A DNA stretch of 64,000 nucleotides from Escherichia phage JLBYU32: sequence record OK272490.1; one strand, written 5' to 3'. Shown here piece after piece: positions 8,398-30,688 of the stretch (its first letter is position 1; each line of letters begins with the position of its first letter). Position numbers and translations under genes: made by a program. Under the pieces are notes generated by a model. The model ran no database searches. It saw only the letters and a program-made list of their open reading frames with translations, and was not told where the DNA came from.

Positions 8398-8603
8398 TGA
8401 TATACAGTCGCGAATTGATGGTTACAACTAACATTCACACAAAGGCAAAACGTTTTTACATGCAAATTTGTGGCGTATGGTCTAGAATATCAGAAGCTGA
8501 CTATTGCAACTATGTAGAAACGTCTATAAACTCTAATTGCTACCTTACAAGAAATACAAGAAAGTACATAAGACAGACAGCAATTTACTACTACGATAAA
8601 TAA
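8397..8603 (+). CDS. hypothetical small protein (start ATG overlapping upstream stop, TAATG)
   Basis: ORF MIYSRELMV...; ends exactly at cassette-associated TAA. Confidence 0.35.
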   Translation: MIYSRELMVTTNIHTKAKRFYMQICGVWSRISEADYCNYVETSINSNCYLTRNTRKYIRQTAIYYYDK

Positions 8604-8690
8604 AGTACTTTACAAGGGGCTTATAGTTCGATAAAGTAAGCCCCAGATAAAGAGCTTTACTAACTAACCTTAAACTAGGAGAATCTGAAA
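8603..8690 (+). repeat. intergenic cassette type A (TAAAGTACTTTACA-GGGGCTTA..TAAGCCCC-AGATAAAGAGCTTTAC + RBS)
   Basis: near-identical copies at 8984, 9592, 10661; stem conserved, loop variable; begins at the stop codon of the upstream gene. Confidence 0.75.
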
Positions 8691-8984
8691 ATGGCTATTA
8701 TCAAAAACGTTGTAATTACTGCAAAAACTCGTGATGACGCTCGCGTTATGGCTAAAAAGTTATGCGGGAAAGTGGTTGACAACGGAAAACAATCTGCTGT
8801 AAGGTGGGGCGTGAAGGCTGATAAACAGTTGAAGTTAAAAAATTCACCGATAAACCTTTTTACATGTGTAAACACTATCGGGAAGACAAATGTATACACG
8901 AAAAAGGCATACATTAGACGCGTAGCATTAACATCCCCCATTCGTACAATGAGAAGTTATGCAAAGCTGAAAATTAACAAATAA
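8691..8984 (+). CDS. hypothetical small basic protein
   Basis: ORF after cassette with GGAGAATCTGAAAATG start context. Confidence 0.55.
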   Translation: MAIIKNVVITAKTRDDARVMAKKLCGKVVDNGKQSAVRWGVKADKQLKLKNSPINLFTCVNTIGKTNVYTKKAYIRRVALTSPIRTMRSYAKLKINK

Positions 8985-9069
8985 AGTACTTTACATGGGG
9001 CTTAAAAGTTGATATCTTAAGCCCCAGATAAAGAGCTTTACCACTCAATCCTAAACTGGAGATTCAAAA
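8984..9069 (+). repeat. intergenic cassette type A
   Basis: TAAAGTACTTTACATGGGGCTTAAAAGTTGATATCTTAAGCCCCAGATAAAGAGCTTTAC. Confidence 0.75.
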
Positions 9070-9582
9070 ATGAAAACTGTAGACGCTACTTTTGAAGTTG
9101 TAAAAGAAAAATTCACCATTATCTATGAAGCGGTAAATTGCTTTGAAGCAAGCCATAATCTTGATAATTGGAAGTTTACAGATGACCATCAAGGCGGTGT
9201 GACTATTAAAAACCCTAACTGTCAGCGTAACGATTTTAAATATGCAATTCCTTTAAATTATAGCCTTAAGCAGCTTTCTAGTGACTATGCAAAACAAGGC
9301 CGGGAAAACCCATCAAAAGAGGCTTATATCAGCTTACAGGAAGAAATAGAAAGAGATTTAGAGGCTTCAGAGTACAACCTTGCCGCGAAAGTTGTGGATG
9401 CAAACGGTAACACGGTTTTAGAAAGTTTTTATCTTGGTTATGCTTTCGATTGGTGCTATCGTGACGGCGATGATTTAGAGGATAGACTAAAAGAAGAGGT
9501 GAGCGATTCAGACGCAGAAACTGAAGTATTAGAACGTTTGGAATCGTTGAAAGACTCAGTGATGAATATCTTTAAGAACTAA
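9070..9582 (+). CDS. hypothetical protein with acidic C-terminus
   Basis: conserved GGAGATTCAAAAATG start module; D/E-rich C-terminal third. Confidence 0.55.
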   Translation: MKTVDATFEVVKEKFTIIYEAVNCFEASHNLDNWKFTDDHQGGVTIKNPNCQRNDFKYAIPLNYSLKQLSSDYAKQGRENPSKEAYISLQEEIERDLEASEYNLAAKVVDANGNTVLESFYLGYAFDWCYRDGDDLEDRLKEEVSDSDAETEVLERLESLKDSVMNIFKN

Positions 9583-9591
9583 ATAGATTTC

Positions 9592-9674
9592 TTTACACGG
9601 GGCTAACAAGCTGATATGATAGCCCCAGATAAAGAGATTTATCAAATAAAGCCCTTAAACTAGGAGATTCTAAA
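9592..9674 (+). repeat. intergenic cassette type A (variant)
   Basis: TTTACACGGGGCTAACAAGCTGATATGATAGCCCCAGATAAAGAG ... AAACTAGGAGATTCTAAAATG. Confidence 0.7.
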
Positions 9675-9971
9675 ATGAAATTATCGAATAAAGTTCGTGA
9701 AAATCTGAGCAAATTACTCAACAAAATTGATTTCATTGAAACATCAAGGAATAGCCATGATGTTATGGAATGGTTACACGGCAAAATAAAAGGTCGTCGT
9801 GTAGTGATTTGCTTATGGAATAGTTGCAGGGAGTATAAAAAACCTGTATTGCAAGTAAATATTTATGATGATACTTTTAAAAGTCCTGTAAAGTCTAAAA
9901 GTGATTTATTAGAATCCTATGAGATAACTTTAAATGGCAAAGTGTCACGTAAAGAGGAAACACCATGTTAA
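9675..9971 (+). CDS. hypothetical small protein
   Basis: ORF following cassette. Confidence 0.55.
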   Translation: MKLSNKVRENLSKLLNKIDFIETSRNSHDVMEWLHGKIKGRRVVICLWNSCREYKKPVLQVNIYDDTFKSPVKSKSDLLESYEITLNGKVSRKEETPC

Positions 9972-10388: not shown

Positions 10389-10661
10389 ATGTATACTACT
10401 AACAACGGTCGTACTCTAAATGTCACTCTACGTCACTACATCAACGGGGTGATGCACTTTGAAGACTTACAAGCTGAGCAACATATCTTAGATTGGCAAC
10501 TTGCAGGACTACAAAAAACTGCTACAGGATACGGGAAAAAGATTCCAACCAGTTGGAAAGTATACTACGAAGGCCGTTTGCGCAGAATTTATCAGGATGT
10601 GCAAAGCAATAGCGCATCGAGTTACATCATAGTAAAAGGTAAAAAGCTGCATTTAGTATAA
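10389..10661 (+). CDS. hypothetical small protein
   Basis: ORF after type B cassette. Confidence 0.55.
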   Translation: MYTTNNGRTLNVTLRHYINGVMHFEDLQAEQHILDWQLAGLQKTATGYGKKIPTSWKVYYEGRLRRIYQDVQSNSASSYIIVKGKKLHLV

Positions 10662-10747
10662 AGTACTTTACAAGGGGCTTATAGTTCGATAAAGTAAGCC
10701 CCAGATAAAGAGCTTTACCACTAAATCCTAAATTGGAGAACTTAAAA
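10661..10747 (+). repeat. intergenic cassette type A
   Basis: TAAAGTACTTTACAAGGGGCTTATAGTTCGATAAAGTAAGCCCCAGATAAAGAGCTTTACC, near identical to copy at 8603. Confidence 0.75.
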
Positions 10748-11152
10748 ATGACTATTAATAATCGCGAGTTATCAATCTTAAAAGCACGTTTGACCGTTAA
10801 CCGGATTAATGTTATTACGTCATCAGCACCGGACGAAACATTGCACAACATTATTGGGAAGATTCAAAGCGTTATCTTAGACGTTGAAAACGTAAAAAAC
10901 TCATTGGCTGACGTTGCAGCAGGTATCACGCTAGACGGTGCACAATATGAAATGTCAGACATGTTAGGCAAATCTAAGGTAATGAATAAAGAGTTAGATT
11001 TGAAAATGTTCCGATTTGCTGTTAAAGTGTGGCTATCTGTCGAGTATGACGCTAACTTTGCAATCGCTGACTTTTTCGCCACTTGGTTACAACGTAATTT
11101 GACAAATCATGATTTTCGTGGTATCTGTGATGCAATTTATGCAGAACTCTAA
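10748..11152 (+). CDS. hypothetical protein
   Basis: start moved to ATG at 10748 after GGAGAACTTAAAA module; track start at 10733 lies inside the RBS. Confidence 0.5.
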   Translation: MTINNRELSILKARLTVNRINVITSSAPDETLHNIIGKIQSVILDVENVKNSLADVAAGITLDGAQYEMSDMLGKSKVMNKELDLKMFRFAVKVWLSVEYDANFAIADFFATWLQRNLTNHDFRGICDAIYAEL

Positions 11153-12414: not shown

Positions 12415-12663
12415 ATGGCAACTATTCGCGCTACTGTTAACGAATTTGGTTTTTCCTCTCTGGATGTTAAATTTGACATTGTAGGCACTGATAACGCCTT
12501 TGAAATGGTGAAAGGTCTTATCAGTCAGACTATCAAAGGCTATAATCCTTCGGAAGAGTTCTGGGAGGAAACAAAACAAGAAGTTCTCAAGGATGGTTAT
12601 ACTTATCACTATTGGGGAGAAAAAATCGTCTCCCTGTACTACAACAAACAAGATTATAACTAA
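12415..12663 (+). CDS. hypothetical small protein
   Basis: ORF after cassette; last gene of + strand array. Confidence 0.55.
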   Translation: MATIRATVNEFGFSSLDVKFDIVGTDNAFEMVKGLISQTIKGYNPSEEFWEETKQEVLKDGYTYHYWGEKIVSLYYNKQDYN

Positions 12664-14434
12664 TCGACGCAGCGGGGCTAAATAGCCCCAGATACCTTTA
12701 CAGCCCCTTTATTTAGATTCGATAGAGTCTATCTCATAGGGGCTTTTTTACGTCCTATCAAATCCCTTATACAATCCCTTTCCCTTTCCTTTCCAGAATC
12801 TTATCAGACCTTAAAAAGCAATAACTCTATAGTCTACTCTATAGCCTACTCTATAGCCTTTTATCAAATCAACTTAAATATAAGCCCATAACCCGAAAGG
12901 GAAGGGCAACCATTTAAACGCTCTATAAAGCCCTATAACAGCCTTATCAACCTAACTTAAGGGATTGCATTACCTCACCCTTAAAAGCCCTTTATAAAGC
13001 TTCCCAGAGCCTTAAAAGAATCTTATAAGGGTGTAAGCTTTATCATCTCGTTAGCTATCTTGTGAACTACTAAACAACCCCCTTGATAGTCACTAAAAAG
13101 TATGTTATAGGGGCTTTAAAGTTGCTTAAAAGTAGCTTAAAAGTTACTTCAAAGTTACGTAAATGCTAGCCCCCTTAACATTTTCTTAACAATTTCTTAA
13201 CAAACCCTACATAGTTATGCTTGTTAGCAACTTGTTAGCCCCTTGTTAAATCTCTGTTAAGACCACGTAAAAGCCTTGTAAGAGTCTTTGACATAGCCTT
13301 TAAAGCCCCTGTAAAGCCCTATAAAGAGCTATCTGTACAGTTGGGCTGTAGTTACTAGGGAGAGACTTAAAAGGGGCTATACAGAGCTATACAGAGCTTT
13401 TAAGAGGTATGTTTAGAGAATCACTAAGAAAGGAAAGGGAACGATAAGAAAAGATAGTTGTGTTTGTAAACAACCACTGTGACCATGTTAATAGCTTGTT
13501 AAAAAGGTTAAACACTTGTTAGGAACTTGTTAATTATCTTAACAAAATAACTCTTAAAAATTAACTTGTTAGCTCTTGTTAGTCATCTGTTAAGATTCTG
13601 TAAAGACTATTCAGCACTTGTTAATTGGTATTGTTACCAATCCCTAGAAAACTGTTACAGCCTTGTTAGTTCTGTTAAGAATCTGTTAAGACCTTTGAAG
13701 AATTGTTAAGAAGATGTGAGAACTGTTAAGAGATTGTTAAGGATATTTTAAAATTCTGCAAAGGGGGTGTTAAGGAGCTGTTAAGGGCTACCAAGCAGAT
13801 ATACATCTTCTACAGATATTTTTCAGTTCCTTCAAAGACCCTAAAAAATGACTTGATAGTCCTATTTTATAAAAATTTTAAAAATCTGAATAATTACCTA
13901 TACAGTCTTTTAAAAATACAGGTAGAAACAGGCTTATAAGATACCTTGTTAGTACCGTGTTAGACCTTGTGAGATAAGGTCTGTAAAGATATTCCTGTTA
14001 AGTTTGTTAAAACAGTCTATATAGAGGCTTAGTAATACCTAGTGAACACCTATAGAGGGTGACATAGCTGACATAGAGATTAAGAGGTGTATAGGAGCTT
14101 CTAAGAGTGTGTAGAGAGATGGTTAAGGTGATTGTATAGGTTGTTTAGAAGGCTTGTTAGAAGAGTGTTTAGAAGGCTTGTTAGAGGGCTTGTTAGAAGG
14201 GTTATACAGAGGGGCTATTAAGACCACTAGATAGTTACTAAGATACTATATAGTACTATATAACTATATATATATAGAGAGTAAGATTAAGAAGGTTGTT
14301 AAGAAGGATAGATATTTGTTCACATATGATGGTGACCCAGAGGTTGGGACAACCGATAAAATTTTATAAAAAGTATAAATTTCGTAAATTTTACTCAATA
14401 AAAAGCCCCCGATTAAGGAGGCTCTTAAGATATT
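12664..14434. repeat. 1.7 kb ORF-free, repeat-dense region between convergent gene blocks
   Basis: no ORF >=60 aa on either strand; tandem CTCTATAG(T/C)CTA x3 (~12826-12860), GCTTGTTAGA(A/G)G x4 (~14143-14200), dozens of YTGTTAR units, TATATA tract ~14246-14280. Confidence 0.8.
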
Positions 14435-15058
14435 TTAAATCAGTGTTTCCAGAACTGTTTTAAGGGATGACTTAGTTGTCTGATAAAAATGAGTGAATCC
14501 GTTGTTGTTATCGAATATCTGCATCATGATATCATCTCCCTTGATTGGGTATACTCGGATATCATAGTGAAAACCATTAAAGACACAAGACCCATTACAG
14601 AATGCACTAAAGTCATCCACTGAGATATACTCTTCATGTCCTGTGATTTTTATACAAACACCTTTACTCGGTCTCTTAGGGTTGATATCTTCCATCACAG
14701 ACATACTCTGTCCACCAAGAGACACCATAGTGACCACTTTACGGTTCTTCTGTCTAAAGTACATCTTAACTTTCTGCAAAGTGTCTTCATAGAACGGATA
14801 AGACCTTTCTACAAAGATTCCTTCAAGTGGCTCTTTACCATTTTCAACTTCTCGGTTATGCCGTACTGCAAAGATAATTTGTTCGAACCAGTCAAGATTT
14901 TCTTCGGAGAGTGCTTCCCGAACATCCTTCCAGTCAAGTACTAAGTAGTTACCTTCAACTTCTTTTAAGTTATCTTTTTCCATATCTATCACACCATTAT
15001 CGTAAAACTTGATATTCTGGTACTGCGAATTTATTACTATTGTTCTTGATGAGGTCAT
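14435..15058 (-). CDS. hypothetical protein
   Basis: first gene of - strand block; 207 aa. Confidence 0.5.
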   Translation of the reverse strand: MTSSRTIVINSQYQNIKFYDNGVIDMEKDNLKEVEGNYLVLDWKDVREALSEENLDWFEQIIFAVRHNREVENGKEPLEGIFVERSYPFYEDTLQKVKMYFRQKNRKVVTMVSLGGQSMSVMEDINPKRPSKGVCIKITGHEEYISVDDFSAFCNGSCVFNGFHYDIRVYPIKGDDIMMQIFDNNNGFTHFYQTTKSSLKTVLETLI

Positions 15059-16909: not shown

Positions 16910-17500
16910 TTATACTCGGCAAGAGTACTTCTTAGGCATTAATGCACTGCGTTTGCTACTTTCTTCACTCAATAGTGCGATAAAGTCATCACCTTTACCT
17001 TTCCACGGGCTGAATGAAGGGATATGCTCACGAATAGCCTCAATAACCGTCTTAAGTGCTGTGTTCTTCATCCACCAATCAGAATCTGCTGATGCAACCA
17101 CGTAGTATCCACCGTCATCAGTTAAAATTGGCTCTGAAATACATGGTGAAATCAAAGTGGTGATGATTGAACCGTTGTTCATGTAGTATGTGCGCTTCAT
17201 AACCTTTTCAAGAAGCTTGTGAAGGTCACCAAACAGTGTTACAAGTTCTTTGTGGTCAATGTCTTTTTCTAGGTTTGCTCGATACTTCAATAGTGCAGCA
17301 TCAACCTCTCTGTCATTAAACTTGAAATATTGAACTTCATCAACAAGGCAAACACTTATGTTGTTAACATTCATAGTCAGCTTGCAAACTTTTGCAGGAG
17401 AGTTGATGCTTGGTTGAAAAAGTGCAACACACCCTTCAATATTTCCAAAGTGTTGTACAAGTGTTACTTGTGGAATGATATCCTGTTGCTCTTCGGACAT
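16910..17500 (-). CDS. hypothetical protein
   Basis: ORF. Confidence 0.5.
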   Translation of the reverse strand: MSEEQQDIIPQVTLVQHFGNIEGCVALFQPSINSPAKVCKLTMNVNNISVCLVDEVQYFKFNDREVDAALLKYRANLEKDIDHKELVTLFGDLHKLLEKVMKRTYYMNNGSIITTLISPCISEPILTDDGGYYVVASADSDWWMKNTALKTVIEAIREHIPSFSPWKGKGDDFIALLSEESSKRSALMPKKYSCRV

Positions 17501-28864: not shown

Positions 28865-29065
28865 ATGAGCGAGACCGTTTATAAAGAACTTTATGAAGCT
28901 AACAAGAAGCTAGAATTTATGCAGAATACTATCATGGCAATTGCAGACAGATTATCTGTAGCAACAGGCATTGATATTAAAGAAGCATCTATGGATGCAC
29001 TTCTTGATGCTGTTGATGCAAAGTTCGAAGTTAAGAAAGAAGAGACTGCTACAGACTCTGAATAA
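28865..29065 (+). CDS. hypothetical small acidic protein upstream of terminase
   Basis: GGAG RBS; first gene of late + strand module. Confidence 0.5.
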   Translation: MSETVYKELYEANKKLEFMQNTIMAIADRLSVATGIDIKEASMDALLDAVDAKFEVKKEETATDSE

Positions 29066-29086
29066 TTCTATTTGCGGAGGTGCTTA

Positions 29087-30688
29087 ATGGACTTAAATGC
29101 TGTTAAGCAGAAGCGAGTGGAAGATGTTAGGAAAGTCCTAGCTGGAGAGTTGGGGCTTTCTGATGAAGTAAAAGAAATTATCAAATCATTCGGTAAAGAC
29201 CCCTCTAAATTCCTTCCAACTCAAATTCTGACTTTATTAAGATACACACCAGACCAAGTTAGACTTATCTTCAAATTGATGACTGATAAGAACTATGTAG
29301 CCCCTCAGCCGGGTTCTCAAGAGGTCTTTTTAAATACTAATGCTGACTTGGTTCTCTATGGTGGTGCTGCGGGTGCTGGTAAAACTGCTGCATTGTTAAT
29401 GGACTCTTTAAGGTTTATTGAAGACCCTAACTATAATGCTGTATATTTCCGTCGAAATACAACACAGTTACAAGGTGGTTTATGGCCTGCTGCAAAGAAA
29501 CTATTTGGTAAGTTTGGTGGGGTTCCTCACGAGCAGAAGATGACTATCACATTCCCTTCTGGGGCAACTATCAAGTTTACCTATCTAGAACTTGAAAAGC
29601 ACGCTGAAGGTCATCAGGGTATTGAATACTCAGCTATTTACTTTGACGAAGGTACACACTTCTCTGCTTCACAGATTTCATACCTACAGACTCGTCTACG
29701 TTCTGGGGCTGAAGGTGATTCATACATGAAGATTTCTATGAACCCAGACAGAGACCACTTTATTTACGATTGGGTAGAACCATTCTTAGATGAAGAAGGC
29801 TACCCAGACCCTGAAAAGTGTGGTCGTATTCGTTGGTATGTAATGAATGATGGTGTTATGGTTTCTGATTGGGAGAGAGACAAGATTCTTGAAATGTTTC
29901 CTCTTGAGATTCCTCAAACATATACATTCATCTCTGGTACGATTGATGATAACCCAATCCTTGACTTCTTAGAGCCTAAGTACCGTGGTAAGTTGGAAAA
30001 CAACACCCCTGTAAACGTTGCAAGACTTCGTTTCGGTAACTGGAAGGCTCGTGCAGAAGGTTCAAACTATTGGCAAAGACAATGGTGTGAGATTGTTGAT
30101 TCACTCCCAGAAGATGTATTCGATGTTAGAGCATGGGACTTAGCAGCAACTTTACCATCTGAGATTAACCCTAATCCAGACTGGACAGCAGGTGTTAAGA
30201 TGGGTAAATCTAAAAAAGACGGTTGCTATTATATCATTGATGTAGTAAGATTTAGAGATAGACCCTCTGGAGTCGAAACACAAATTAATTTGACTGCTGA
30301 AAGTGACGGTAAGCGAACTGGTATTTTTATCCCTCAAGACCCAGGCGCTGCTGGTAAATCCTACGCAACATCCCTCATCAGGAAACTTGCCGAGAAAGGT
30401 TATCGAGCAAGAGCTAAACCAACAAATAAAGATAAAGTTACCCGCTTTGCGGGATTTTCTGCTGCTTCTGAAGCTGGACTTGTAAAAGTCTTGAGAGGTA
30501 GTTGGAATGAAGCTTACTTTCAAGAGCTTGAAGGCTTTTGTGGTGATGGCAAAACTAAAGATGACCAAGTGGATGCTACCAGTGATGCTTTCAACAGTCT
30601 TAACGAAGTTAAATTATTCAAGCCACCATCAATGGGTGCTCACACAGATTTAGTGAGAGGAAACCCGTATGAGGGGCTTAGACGTTGA
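29087..30688 (+). CDS. terL: terminase large subunit
   Basis: Walker A LVLYGGAAGAGKTAAL; start moved to ATG 29087 after GGAGG RBS (track start 29072 is TTG); ~533 aa. Confidence 0.8.
   Translation: MDLNAVKQKRVEDVRKVLAGELGLSDEVKEIIKSFGKDPSKFLPTQILTLLRYTPDQVRLIFKLMTDKNYVAPQPGSQEVFLNTNADLVLYGGAAGAGKTAALLMDSLRFIEDPNYNAVYFRRNTTQLQGGLWPAAKKLFGKFGGVPHEQKMTITFPSGATIKFTYLELEKHAEGHQGIEYSAIYFDEGTHFSASQISYLQTRLRSGAEGDSYMKISMNPDRDHFIYDWVEPFLDEEGYPDPEKCGRIRWYVMNDGVMVSDWERDKILEMFPLEIPQTYTFISGTIDDNPILDFLEPKYRGKLENNTPVNVARLRFGNWKARAEGSNYWQRQWCEIVDSLPEDVFDVRAWDLAATLPSEINPNPDWTAGVKMGKSKKDGCYYIIDVVRFRDRPSGVETQINLTAESDGKRTGIFIPQDPGAAGKSYATSLIRKLAEKGYRARAKPTNKDKVTRFAGFSAASEAGLVKVLRGSWNEAYFQELEGFCGDGKTKDDQVDATSDAFNSLNEVKLFKPPSMGAHTDLVRGNPYEGLRR

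Follow-up and report, generated by a model that had tools for sequence, protein, structure and literature searches.

A repeat-rich, non-coding island of Escherichia phage JLBYU32 as a probable concatemer junction and packaging region of a Felix O1-like chromosome

In this work, we consider a 64,000-nucleotide stretch of DNA from Escherichia phage JLBYU32 (sequence record OK272490.1; this whole stretch is called the window below) and, within it, an island of short repeats at positions 12664-14434 that lies between two convergent gene blocks. The phage is a Felix O1-like myophage (Ounavirinae), and the island is very probably its collapsed concatemer junction and packaging region. Judging from the sequence, its most likely function is to provide cis-acting sites for terminase recognition and cutting, together with a phased protein-binding lattice for packaging. 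A previous sequence-only reading of the window had suggested that the island is a replication origin, a protein-binding array, a packaging signal or a long non-coding RNA. The packaging signal and the binding array fit well with the termini and the direct terminal repeat (DTR) of about 624 bp that are placed inside the island below, while the origin and the long non-coding RNA found no support; the key fact, that the island is a chromosome end, was missed in that reading. Short DTRs in Felix O1-like phages have already been published, and the main explanation is to that extent an ordinary one. What appears to be undescribed is a helically phased lattice of 65 CTNNNNAG units, an inverted boundary motif, TAGCCC(CC)TTAACA, and a close parallel with the junction of phage T7; in the openly searchable literature, no description of the repeat lattice or of the boundary motif was found.

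Matches to the island were found in 256-270 phage records, which belong almost exclusively to Felix O1-like myophages, at 75-92% identity. In a sensitive search, many records had their start or their end midway through the island, with a second match at the opposite end of the record. For example, Escherichia phage E9, whose termini came from PhageTerm, carries an exact 580-bp duplication at its record ends, and this duplication maps to positions 13169-13792 of the window. The 570-bp end repeat annotated at both ends of the linear record of Citrobacter phage HP1 (Mooglevirus) maps to the same positions, and a 618-bp 'DTR' annotated within the syntenic gap of Salmonella phage UAB_69 maps to 13167-13794. 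The records of ZX4221, SeKF_63 and NBSal004 begin at position 13169, and at least five Felixouna- or Mooglevirus records start there, which indicates fixed, non-permuted termini.

Several published results concern the same ends. In UAB_Phi87, a direct terminal repeat of 608 bp was demonstrated by Bal31 digestion and run-off sequencing; in Ro111lw, a 613-bp DTR was determined by PhageTerm and classed as 'similar to T7, short DTR'; and short DTRs have been suggested for kolesnikviruses. In the Felix O1 genome paper, the sequence was opened upstream of rIIA for annotation, and short terminal repeats were inferred only. The window is opened by the same rIIA convention, and therefore the true chromosome ends should lie about 13 kb inside it. 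The location of the island at a strand switch is explained by the chromosome end, or concatemer junction, that sits there.

Since the boundary sequences in the window are identical to those of E9, the island can be divided into a right flank, the DTR and a left flank. The right-end subterminal flank (12664-13168) is non-coding and C-rich on the + strand (GC skew -0.26), and contains 19 cores of the repeat unit CTNNNNAG, which are of the CTTAAAAG, CTATAAAG and CTCTATAG types. The DTR itself (13169-13792, about 624 bp) contains 27 cores, with 22 occurrences of TGTTA against 4 of TAACA; by comparison with the relatives, the single copy in the collapsed sequence would correspond to two copies in the virion. 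The left-end subterminal flank (13793-14434), which is also non-coding, is G-rich on the + strand (GC skew +0.28) and contains 18 cores and a stretch of 90% A+T near 13863-13900. With this arrangement, the chromosome would be linear and non-permuted, starting at G13169 and ending, after the whole genome, at 13792.

The two ends of the DTR carry one asymmetric element, TAGCCC(CC)TTAACA, which points inward at both ends on opposite strands and is followed by CTTAACA units at 11-bp spacing. The left-terminus block (13155-13203, + strand) is TTACGTAAATGCTA|GCCCCCTTAACAttttCTTAACAatttCTTAACA, where the vertical bar denotes the inferred cut at 13168/13169, and the left end of the DTR accordingly reads TA|GCCCCCTTAACAttttCTTAACAatttCTTAACA; GCCCNNTTAACA, which is part of this block, occurs once in the 64-kb window. 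The right-terminus block (13768-13805, + strand) is TGTTAAGGAGCTGTTAAGGGCTACC|AAGCAGATATACA, with the inferred cut at 13792/13793, and the right end reads cttgctt|GGTAGCCCTTAACAgctcCTTAACA on the other strand. The blocks also hold the two arms of an inverted repeat: the left arm, CCCTTAACATTTTCTTAACA (13172-13191, + strand), is 20 nt long and is 85% complementary to the right arm at 13768-13787.

These cut-site blocks are nearly invariant in ten aligned genomes of Felixouna-, Susp- and Mooglevirus. Even phiEa21-4, an Erwinia phage (Kolesnikvirus) that is very divergent, keeps the series TTACG...TTAGCC...TTAACA and TTTTGCAAAGG...AAGCAGATATACA, and AAGCAGATATACA is invariant in all four genera, phiEa21-4 included. 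Using the motif only, the left terminus of phiEa21-4 was predicted at position 17028 of its sequence (L032), i.e. query position 229. The prediction held: the Kolesnikvirus records include at least eight independent ones whose first nucleotide falls at query positions 226-230, within 3 nt of that point, and two phages, Roscha1 and Prophecy, are opened exactly at the predicted left cut, each with a single repeat copy. The phiEa21-4 repeat is predicted to extend over positions 17028-17466 of L032 (about 439 bp).

Two minor observations concern the neighborhood of the right cut site. A 24-nt insertion, GAGGTAGATTCTACCGAATCAACT, is present after position ~13808 in three relatives (L020/VpaE1, L022 and L030), about 16 nt outside the right boundary of the DTR, and shows that the sequence beyond the invariant AAGCAGATATACA block tolerates insertions. 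In addition, a site at 13745-13773 on the - strand recalls the leftward A0 promoter annotated near the left end of T7; it may be a mere by-product of the TTAACA repeat unit.

The repeat structure of the island is stronger and more regular than described in the sequence-only reading, and every motif named there is a variant of one 8-bp core, CTNNNNAG. The island contains 65 copies of this core, as compared with 11.8 +/- 3.1 (maximum 22) in 1000 dinucleotide-preserving shuffles; in the rest of the 64-kb window, the next best count per 1771 bp is 26 and the median is 17. Adjacent cores are spaced by 10-12 bp in 26 cases against 0.25 expected, and the pairwise distances between cores have peaks at 11, 22 and 33 bp. 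The unit interiors are heterogeneous and form at least six sub-families.

The individual motifs reported earlier are present. YTGTTAR has 25 copies on the + strand as compared with 3 on the - strand, and its density is 19.5-fold higher than elsewhere in the window. CTTGTTAG is present in 10 copies, where 0.07 would be expected, and is absent from the other strand. The threefold tandem repeat of CTCTATAG(T/C)CTA was located at 12824-12859 on the + strand (3.0 copies, period 12, 95% match), where the sub-array unit can be written as ACTCTATAGCCT or CTCTATAGYCTA. The GCTTGTTAGA(A/G)G array was located at 14145-14200 on the + strand as the tandem sub-array TTAGAAGGCTTG (period 12); the four copies claimed for it are approximate, since there are 4.7 copies, of which three are exact (GCTTGTTAGARG x3) and two are degenerate, and the copy number differs among relatives. 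The TATATA tract corresponds to a TA-rich tract at 14243-14276. Another sub-array, CTTAAAAGTTA, occupies 13113-13168 on the + strand (about 4.5 copies, period 11) and reaches the left cut site. Five A-tracts in this sub-array, phased every 11 bp and thus once per helical turn, extend to the left cut, and the palindrome TTACGTAA lies within it at 13155-13162.

The closest parallel to this organization is the junction of T7, which we measured with the same scripts. The T7 junction contains a terminal repeat of 160 bp, and CCTAAAG occurs in it 13 times on one strand and 0 times on the other, with 13-bp phasing; the short-repeat arrays are called SRL and SRR in the T7 literature. T7 resembles the island in having a short, exact and non-permuted terminal repeat within a non-coding junction, and in having a short A-rich motif with fixed phasing, copies of which are found in both flanks and inside the repeat. 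On the other hand, the repeat is about 4 times longer here (624 vs 160 bp), the junction is about 2.4 times longer (1771 vs 739 bp), and the unit is CTNNNNAG with an 11-bp period instead of CCTAAAG with a 13-bp period. Moreover, the DTR is bounded here by an inverted repeat, whereas none was seen at the T7 ends, and transcription runs through the T7 junction but converges on the island. The phages themselves also differ: the present one is a myovirus, its TerL has a T4-type fold, and it has no phage RNA polymerase.

This last difference is relevant because packaging in T7 involves pausing of the RNA polymerase at the junction. The class II pause signal of the T7 RNA polymerase, ATCTGTT, does occur twice in the DTR, but the window contains 14 copies against 14.9 expected, and we treat the two copies as coincidence; the lack of a T7-like RNA polymerase in the Felix O1-like phages also counts against a pause signal.

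To see how the lattice evolves, 24 distinct islands from three genera can be compared. Each of them is 1635-1807 bp long and contains 54-70 cores, with 12-27 spacings of 10-12 bp and a YTGTTAR strand ratio of about 24 to 3. In the phiEa21-4 island, TGTTAAGA occurs nine times in a single orientation, along with a CTTCTAAR family. The CT and AG anchor bases of the core are conserved at 0.90-0.95, as compared with 0.80-0.84 in the spacers. The anchor mean is 0.922, a value reached by none of 10,000 permutations, and that of base-matched non-core positions is 0.823 +/- 0.015; the anchors are under purifying selection. Among the 48 insertions or deletions of at least 5 nt, 26 measure 10-13, 20-24 or 33-35 nt; units are gained and lost as a whole, with the phase preserved. 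The island is covered in the relatives to 94-99%, as opposed to 69-82% for the adjoining mosaic genes, and the left-end flank is its best-conserved third (0.90 identity), on a par with coding DNA.

These results bear on an alternative explanation, in which only the two cut-site blocks are functional and the rest of the island is filler or buffer DNA, that is, a spacer that shields the genes from exonuclease and from terminase cuts, with repeats generated by slippage or unequal recombination. Filler of this type would account for the prevalence of whole-unit insertions and deletions, the varying copy number of several sub-arrays and the heterogeneity of the unit interiors, and also for the fact that no binding protein was found. 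Nevertheless, we consider it unlikely, because the CT and AG anchors surpass the matched bases, the core number and the length are held within narrow ranges in the 24 genomes of the three genera, the TGTTAAGA units are still found in phiEa21-4 despite its strong divergence, the left-end flank is conserved as well as coding DNA, and T7 has converged on the same layout.

If the island is a packaging region with a functional lattice, the process may be outlined as follows. Terminase would recognize TAGCCC(CC)TTAACA and the CTTAACA units 11 bp apart, which are oppositely oriented at the two DTR boundaries, and would nick or cut the DNA just outside each boundary element, on opposite strands; strand-displacement synthesis would then duplicate the 624-bp repeat and provide each packaged genome with a full copy. 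The opposite orientation of the two elements is the geometry required for staggered nicks on opposite strands, and such nicks, followed by strand-displacement synthesis, are the classical scheme proposed for T7. The approximately 65 CTNNNNAG units, being one helical turn apart, would line up equivalent contacts, or bends intrinsic to the units, along one side of the helix for 1.7 kb, and most likely the phased lattice bends the junction or is wrapped or cooperatively coated by a packaging or recognition protein. Observed are the places of the termini in the relatives, the symmetry of the boundaries, the motif statistics and the conservation; which strand is cut and by what chemistry, what the lattice does and what binds it are the points that we infer.

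The enzyme expected to cut at both DTR boundaries is the large terminase subunit (TerL), whose gene lies outside the island at 29072-30688 on the + strand (phrog_979, E = 1e-233; Terminase_6N and Terminase_6C). TerL of the Felix O1 type is reported to form its own DTR cluster (PMC4837284). As for the small terminase subunit (TerS), a sequence-based search gave no TerS family match among the ORFs (open reading frames) from 26.7 to 29.1 kb, and the Felix O1 authors likewise identified TerL only. A more specific version of the outline is that the lattice is a dedicated nucleoprotein scaffold: a phage protein replacing the small terminase would polymerize along the approximately 1.7 kb, or wrap it, and would position TerL symmetrically at the inverted boundary motifs. 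We offer this version tentatively, and would sooner expect it to be wrong than right; if true, packaging would be initiated by a complex whose type and size have no described precedent among tailed phages.

Several points weigh against the packaging interpretation as presented here. First, the termini of JLBYU32 itself are placed by homology, though its boundaries are identical to those of E9, and the boundaries of UAB_69 are off by 2 nt at each end, so that the exact cuts and overhangs are uncertain. Second, most units in the DTR are oriented like those at the right boundary and just three at the left boundary are inverted, which the model does not explain. Third, the insertions and deletions of whole units, together with several poorly conserved blocks (0.5-0.7), imply that the array is in part evolutionarily labile and that this part could be filler generated by slippage. 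Fourth, neither a small terminase nor any other DNA-binding protein could be linked to the motifs, and the flanking genes have no family assignment. A 66-aa ORF considered as a small terminase was unconvincing, since it has near-identical homologues only and its product is acidic and helical with no basic surface. Finally, to our knowledge, the function of the short-repeat arrays of T7 has never been established.

Apart from its candidacy, the 66-aa ORF (28865-29065, + strand) is located directly upstream of the TerL gene, encodes a strongly acidic protein and belongs to phrog_4397, a family of unknown function. Its position is conserved in phiEa21-4, with 30% identity, and it is also the gene at which the curated record of Bas63 opens; it may be a packaging accessory.

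Other known systems share some of the features proposed for the island. SPP1 pacL/pacR, the lambda cosB R-sites and P22 pac are recognition regions read by small terminase subunits, and like the island they combine several short phased recognition elements with intrinsically bent DNA beside the terminase cut. However, the phages that use such pac or cos sites have a recognizable TerS, whereas none was found for the present phage; their sites span tens to about 200 bp rather than 1.7 kb, and their ends are cohesive or headful rather than exact DTRs. The parC centromere of plasmid R1 consists of ten 11-bp iterons bound cooperatively by ParR and offers a physical model for reading the lattice, in which units repeated every 11 bp would allow one side of the helix to be covered by a small protein. 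The resemblance is one of mechanism alone: neither a partition system nor a ParR-like gene is present here, and about 65 units with heterogeneous interiors stand against 10 near-identical iterons. The long terminal repeat of T5 includes a non-coding repeat region that has been proposed as an injection stop signal, and it is comparable to the island as a kilobase-scale, ORF-free and repeat-rich tract tied to the terminal repeat of a virulent coliphage. The T5 repeat differs in that it is about 10 kb long and contains genes, and its tract is linked to DNA transfer in two steps, whereas nothing indicates such a transfer in Felix O1-like phages.

Iterons are also a feature of replication origins, and an origin would interpret the phased repeats as iterons and the A+T-rich stretches as unwinding elements, possibly in addition to the termini. 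The direct repeats at multiples of 11 bp and the stretches of 90% A+T near 13863 and 14356 are consistent with this, as is the fact that in recombination-replicating phages the chromosome ends can prime replication. We regard an origin as improbable all the same. The island contains no DnaA boxes, even when one mismatch is allowed, and there is no recognizable initiator adjacent to it, the flanking proteins having no Pfam family and belonging to PHROG families of unknown function. The unit is an 8-bp core and not a typical iteron of 17-22 bp, the Felix O1 authors placed the early replication genes far away (genes 96-105), and the position of the island is already accounted for by the physical termini.

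Another explanation assigns the arrays a role in end protection or in the control of DNA entry: they would bind a phage or host protein that shields the incoming linear ends from RecBCD or from restriction, or that pauses ejection. At each end of the virion DNA, the outermost ~1.1-1.3 kb are indeed taken up by the arrays, and their motif has a strong strand polarity (25 to 3). On the other side, neither Chi-like nor other known protective sequences were found, no protein is linked to the arrays, and conservation is strongest right at the cut sites, an indication of packaging; the chance that protection or entry control is the answer seems to us very small. Last, a long non-coding RNA or an RNA-protein sponge, whose strand-biased motifs would act as RNA and which might draw on a slight enrichment of sigma-70-like hexamer pairs (13 vs 7.6 +/- 2.5), can practically be set aside, because the best Rfam match reaches 23 of the 55 bits required (E = 0.98), terminators at the edges of the island stop incoming transcription, the promoter-like matches are merely TTAACA, the reverse of the repeat unit, and the T7 arrays show the same strand bias in DNA.

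The identification of the island as a packaging region has some practical consequences. Felix O1-like phages are widely used in the typing, biocontrol and therapy of Salmonella and E. coli, and several hundred genomes have been deposited. Most of the deposited records are opened arbitrarily, at rIIA or elsewhere, and the island in them is left unannotated or is given spurious small ORFs. The boundary motifs provide a sequence rule for orienting and annotating such genomes, with TA|GCCCCCTTAACA marking the left end and GGGCTACC|AAGCAGATATACA the right end; this rule correctly predicted the left terminus in another genus. The island also defines a minimal cis region that should be kept in engineering or rebooting these phages. 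With its conserved, symmetric cut sites and no known TerS, it is a tractable system for studying how DTR-generating terminases find and duplicate ends, and it could reveal the purpose of the short-repeat arrays of the T7 type.

Regarding the coding content, the absence of any ORF of 60 aa or more from 12664-14434, which the sequence-only reading had noted, was confirmed, the largest ORFs there being 42-55 aa. These ORFs are intact in just 0-10 of 24 related genomes, and the substitutions in the island show no mod-3 pattern or codon periodicity. Depositors have annotated the island with nothing, with a 'repeat_region', with flanking terminators or with doubtful small ORFs; we reject small proteins encoded in the island, because the annotated ORFs are unconserved to the extent just given. 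The statement that the island is not a CRISPR array was also correct: the units have an 8-bp core and an 11-bp period without unique spacers, and identical repeats of 24-48 bp with uniform unique spacers were not found in it.

The flanking gene blocks converge on the island, as had been noted, with the + block ending at 12663 and the - block starting at 14435. An intrinsic terminator of the + block is located at 12702-12750 on the + strand and consists of a nested 7-bp + 7-bp hairpin followed by a T-run (-21.1 kcal/mol, z = -5.4); a short hairpin, GGGGCTAAATAGCCCC, precedes it at 12674-12689. The corresponding terminator of the - block is located at 14396-14426 on the - strand (GAGCCUCC...GGGGGCUUUUU; z = -2.8). 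Both edge terminators point into the island and insulate the flanks from the converging operons, and in the AYO145A record terminators are annotated at both corresponding places.

The left side of the island is adjoined by an 82-aa ORF (12415-12663, + strand) without a known family. Its protein identity is 54-62% in many relatives, in which the island DNA is 85-90% identical, and about 95% in others, and it seems to occur as two divergent alleles beside the right chromosome end. The early block on the + strand contains a recurring intergenic module, CTTTACAnGGGGCT(10-14 nt)AGCCCCAGATAAAGAGCTTTAC...CCTAAACTGGAGA..ATG, at 8595-8700, 8975-9080, 9577-9680, 10653-10756 and 12640-12745, the copy at the edge of the island being truncated. 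Within this context, AGCCCCAGATA is found five times, on the + strand only, against 0.6 expected. The module corresponds to direct repeats of 57 bp that the Felix O1 paper lists, and looks like a hairpin set between promoter-like elements, upstream of small early genes.

Two further observations concern database records and the window as a whole. A full island of the Felix O1 type is present at 135357-137078 of GU169904.1, the 147-kb record of Staphylococcus phage SA1, with 84.8% identity; this is most likely due to a chimeric or contaminated assembly and does not reflect real biology. In the window (1-64000), GATC is completely absent, with about 227 occurrences expected from the base composition, while other 4-bp palindromes are reduced only 2- to 5-fold (CCGG and CGCG to 0.2x; CTAG, TCGA and TATA to 0.44x). 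The absence of GATC suggests very strong selection against host systems that target this site, such as Dam/MutH or DpnII-type restriction.

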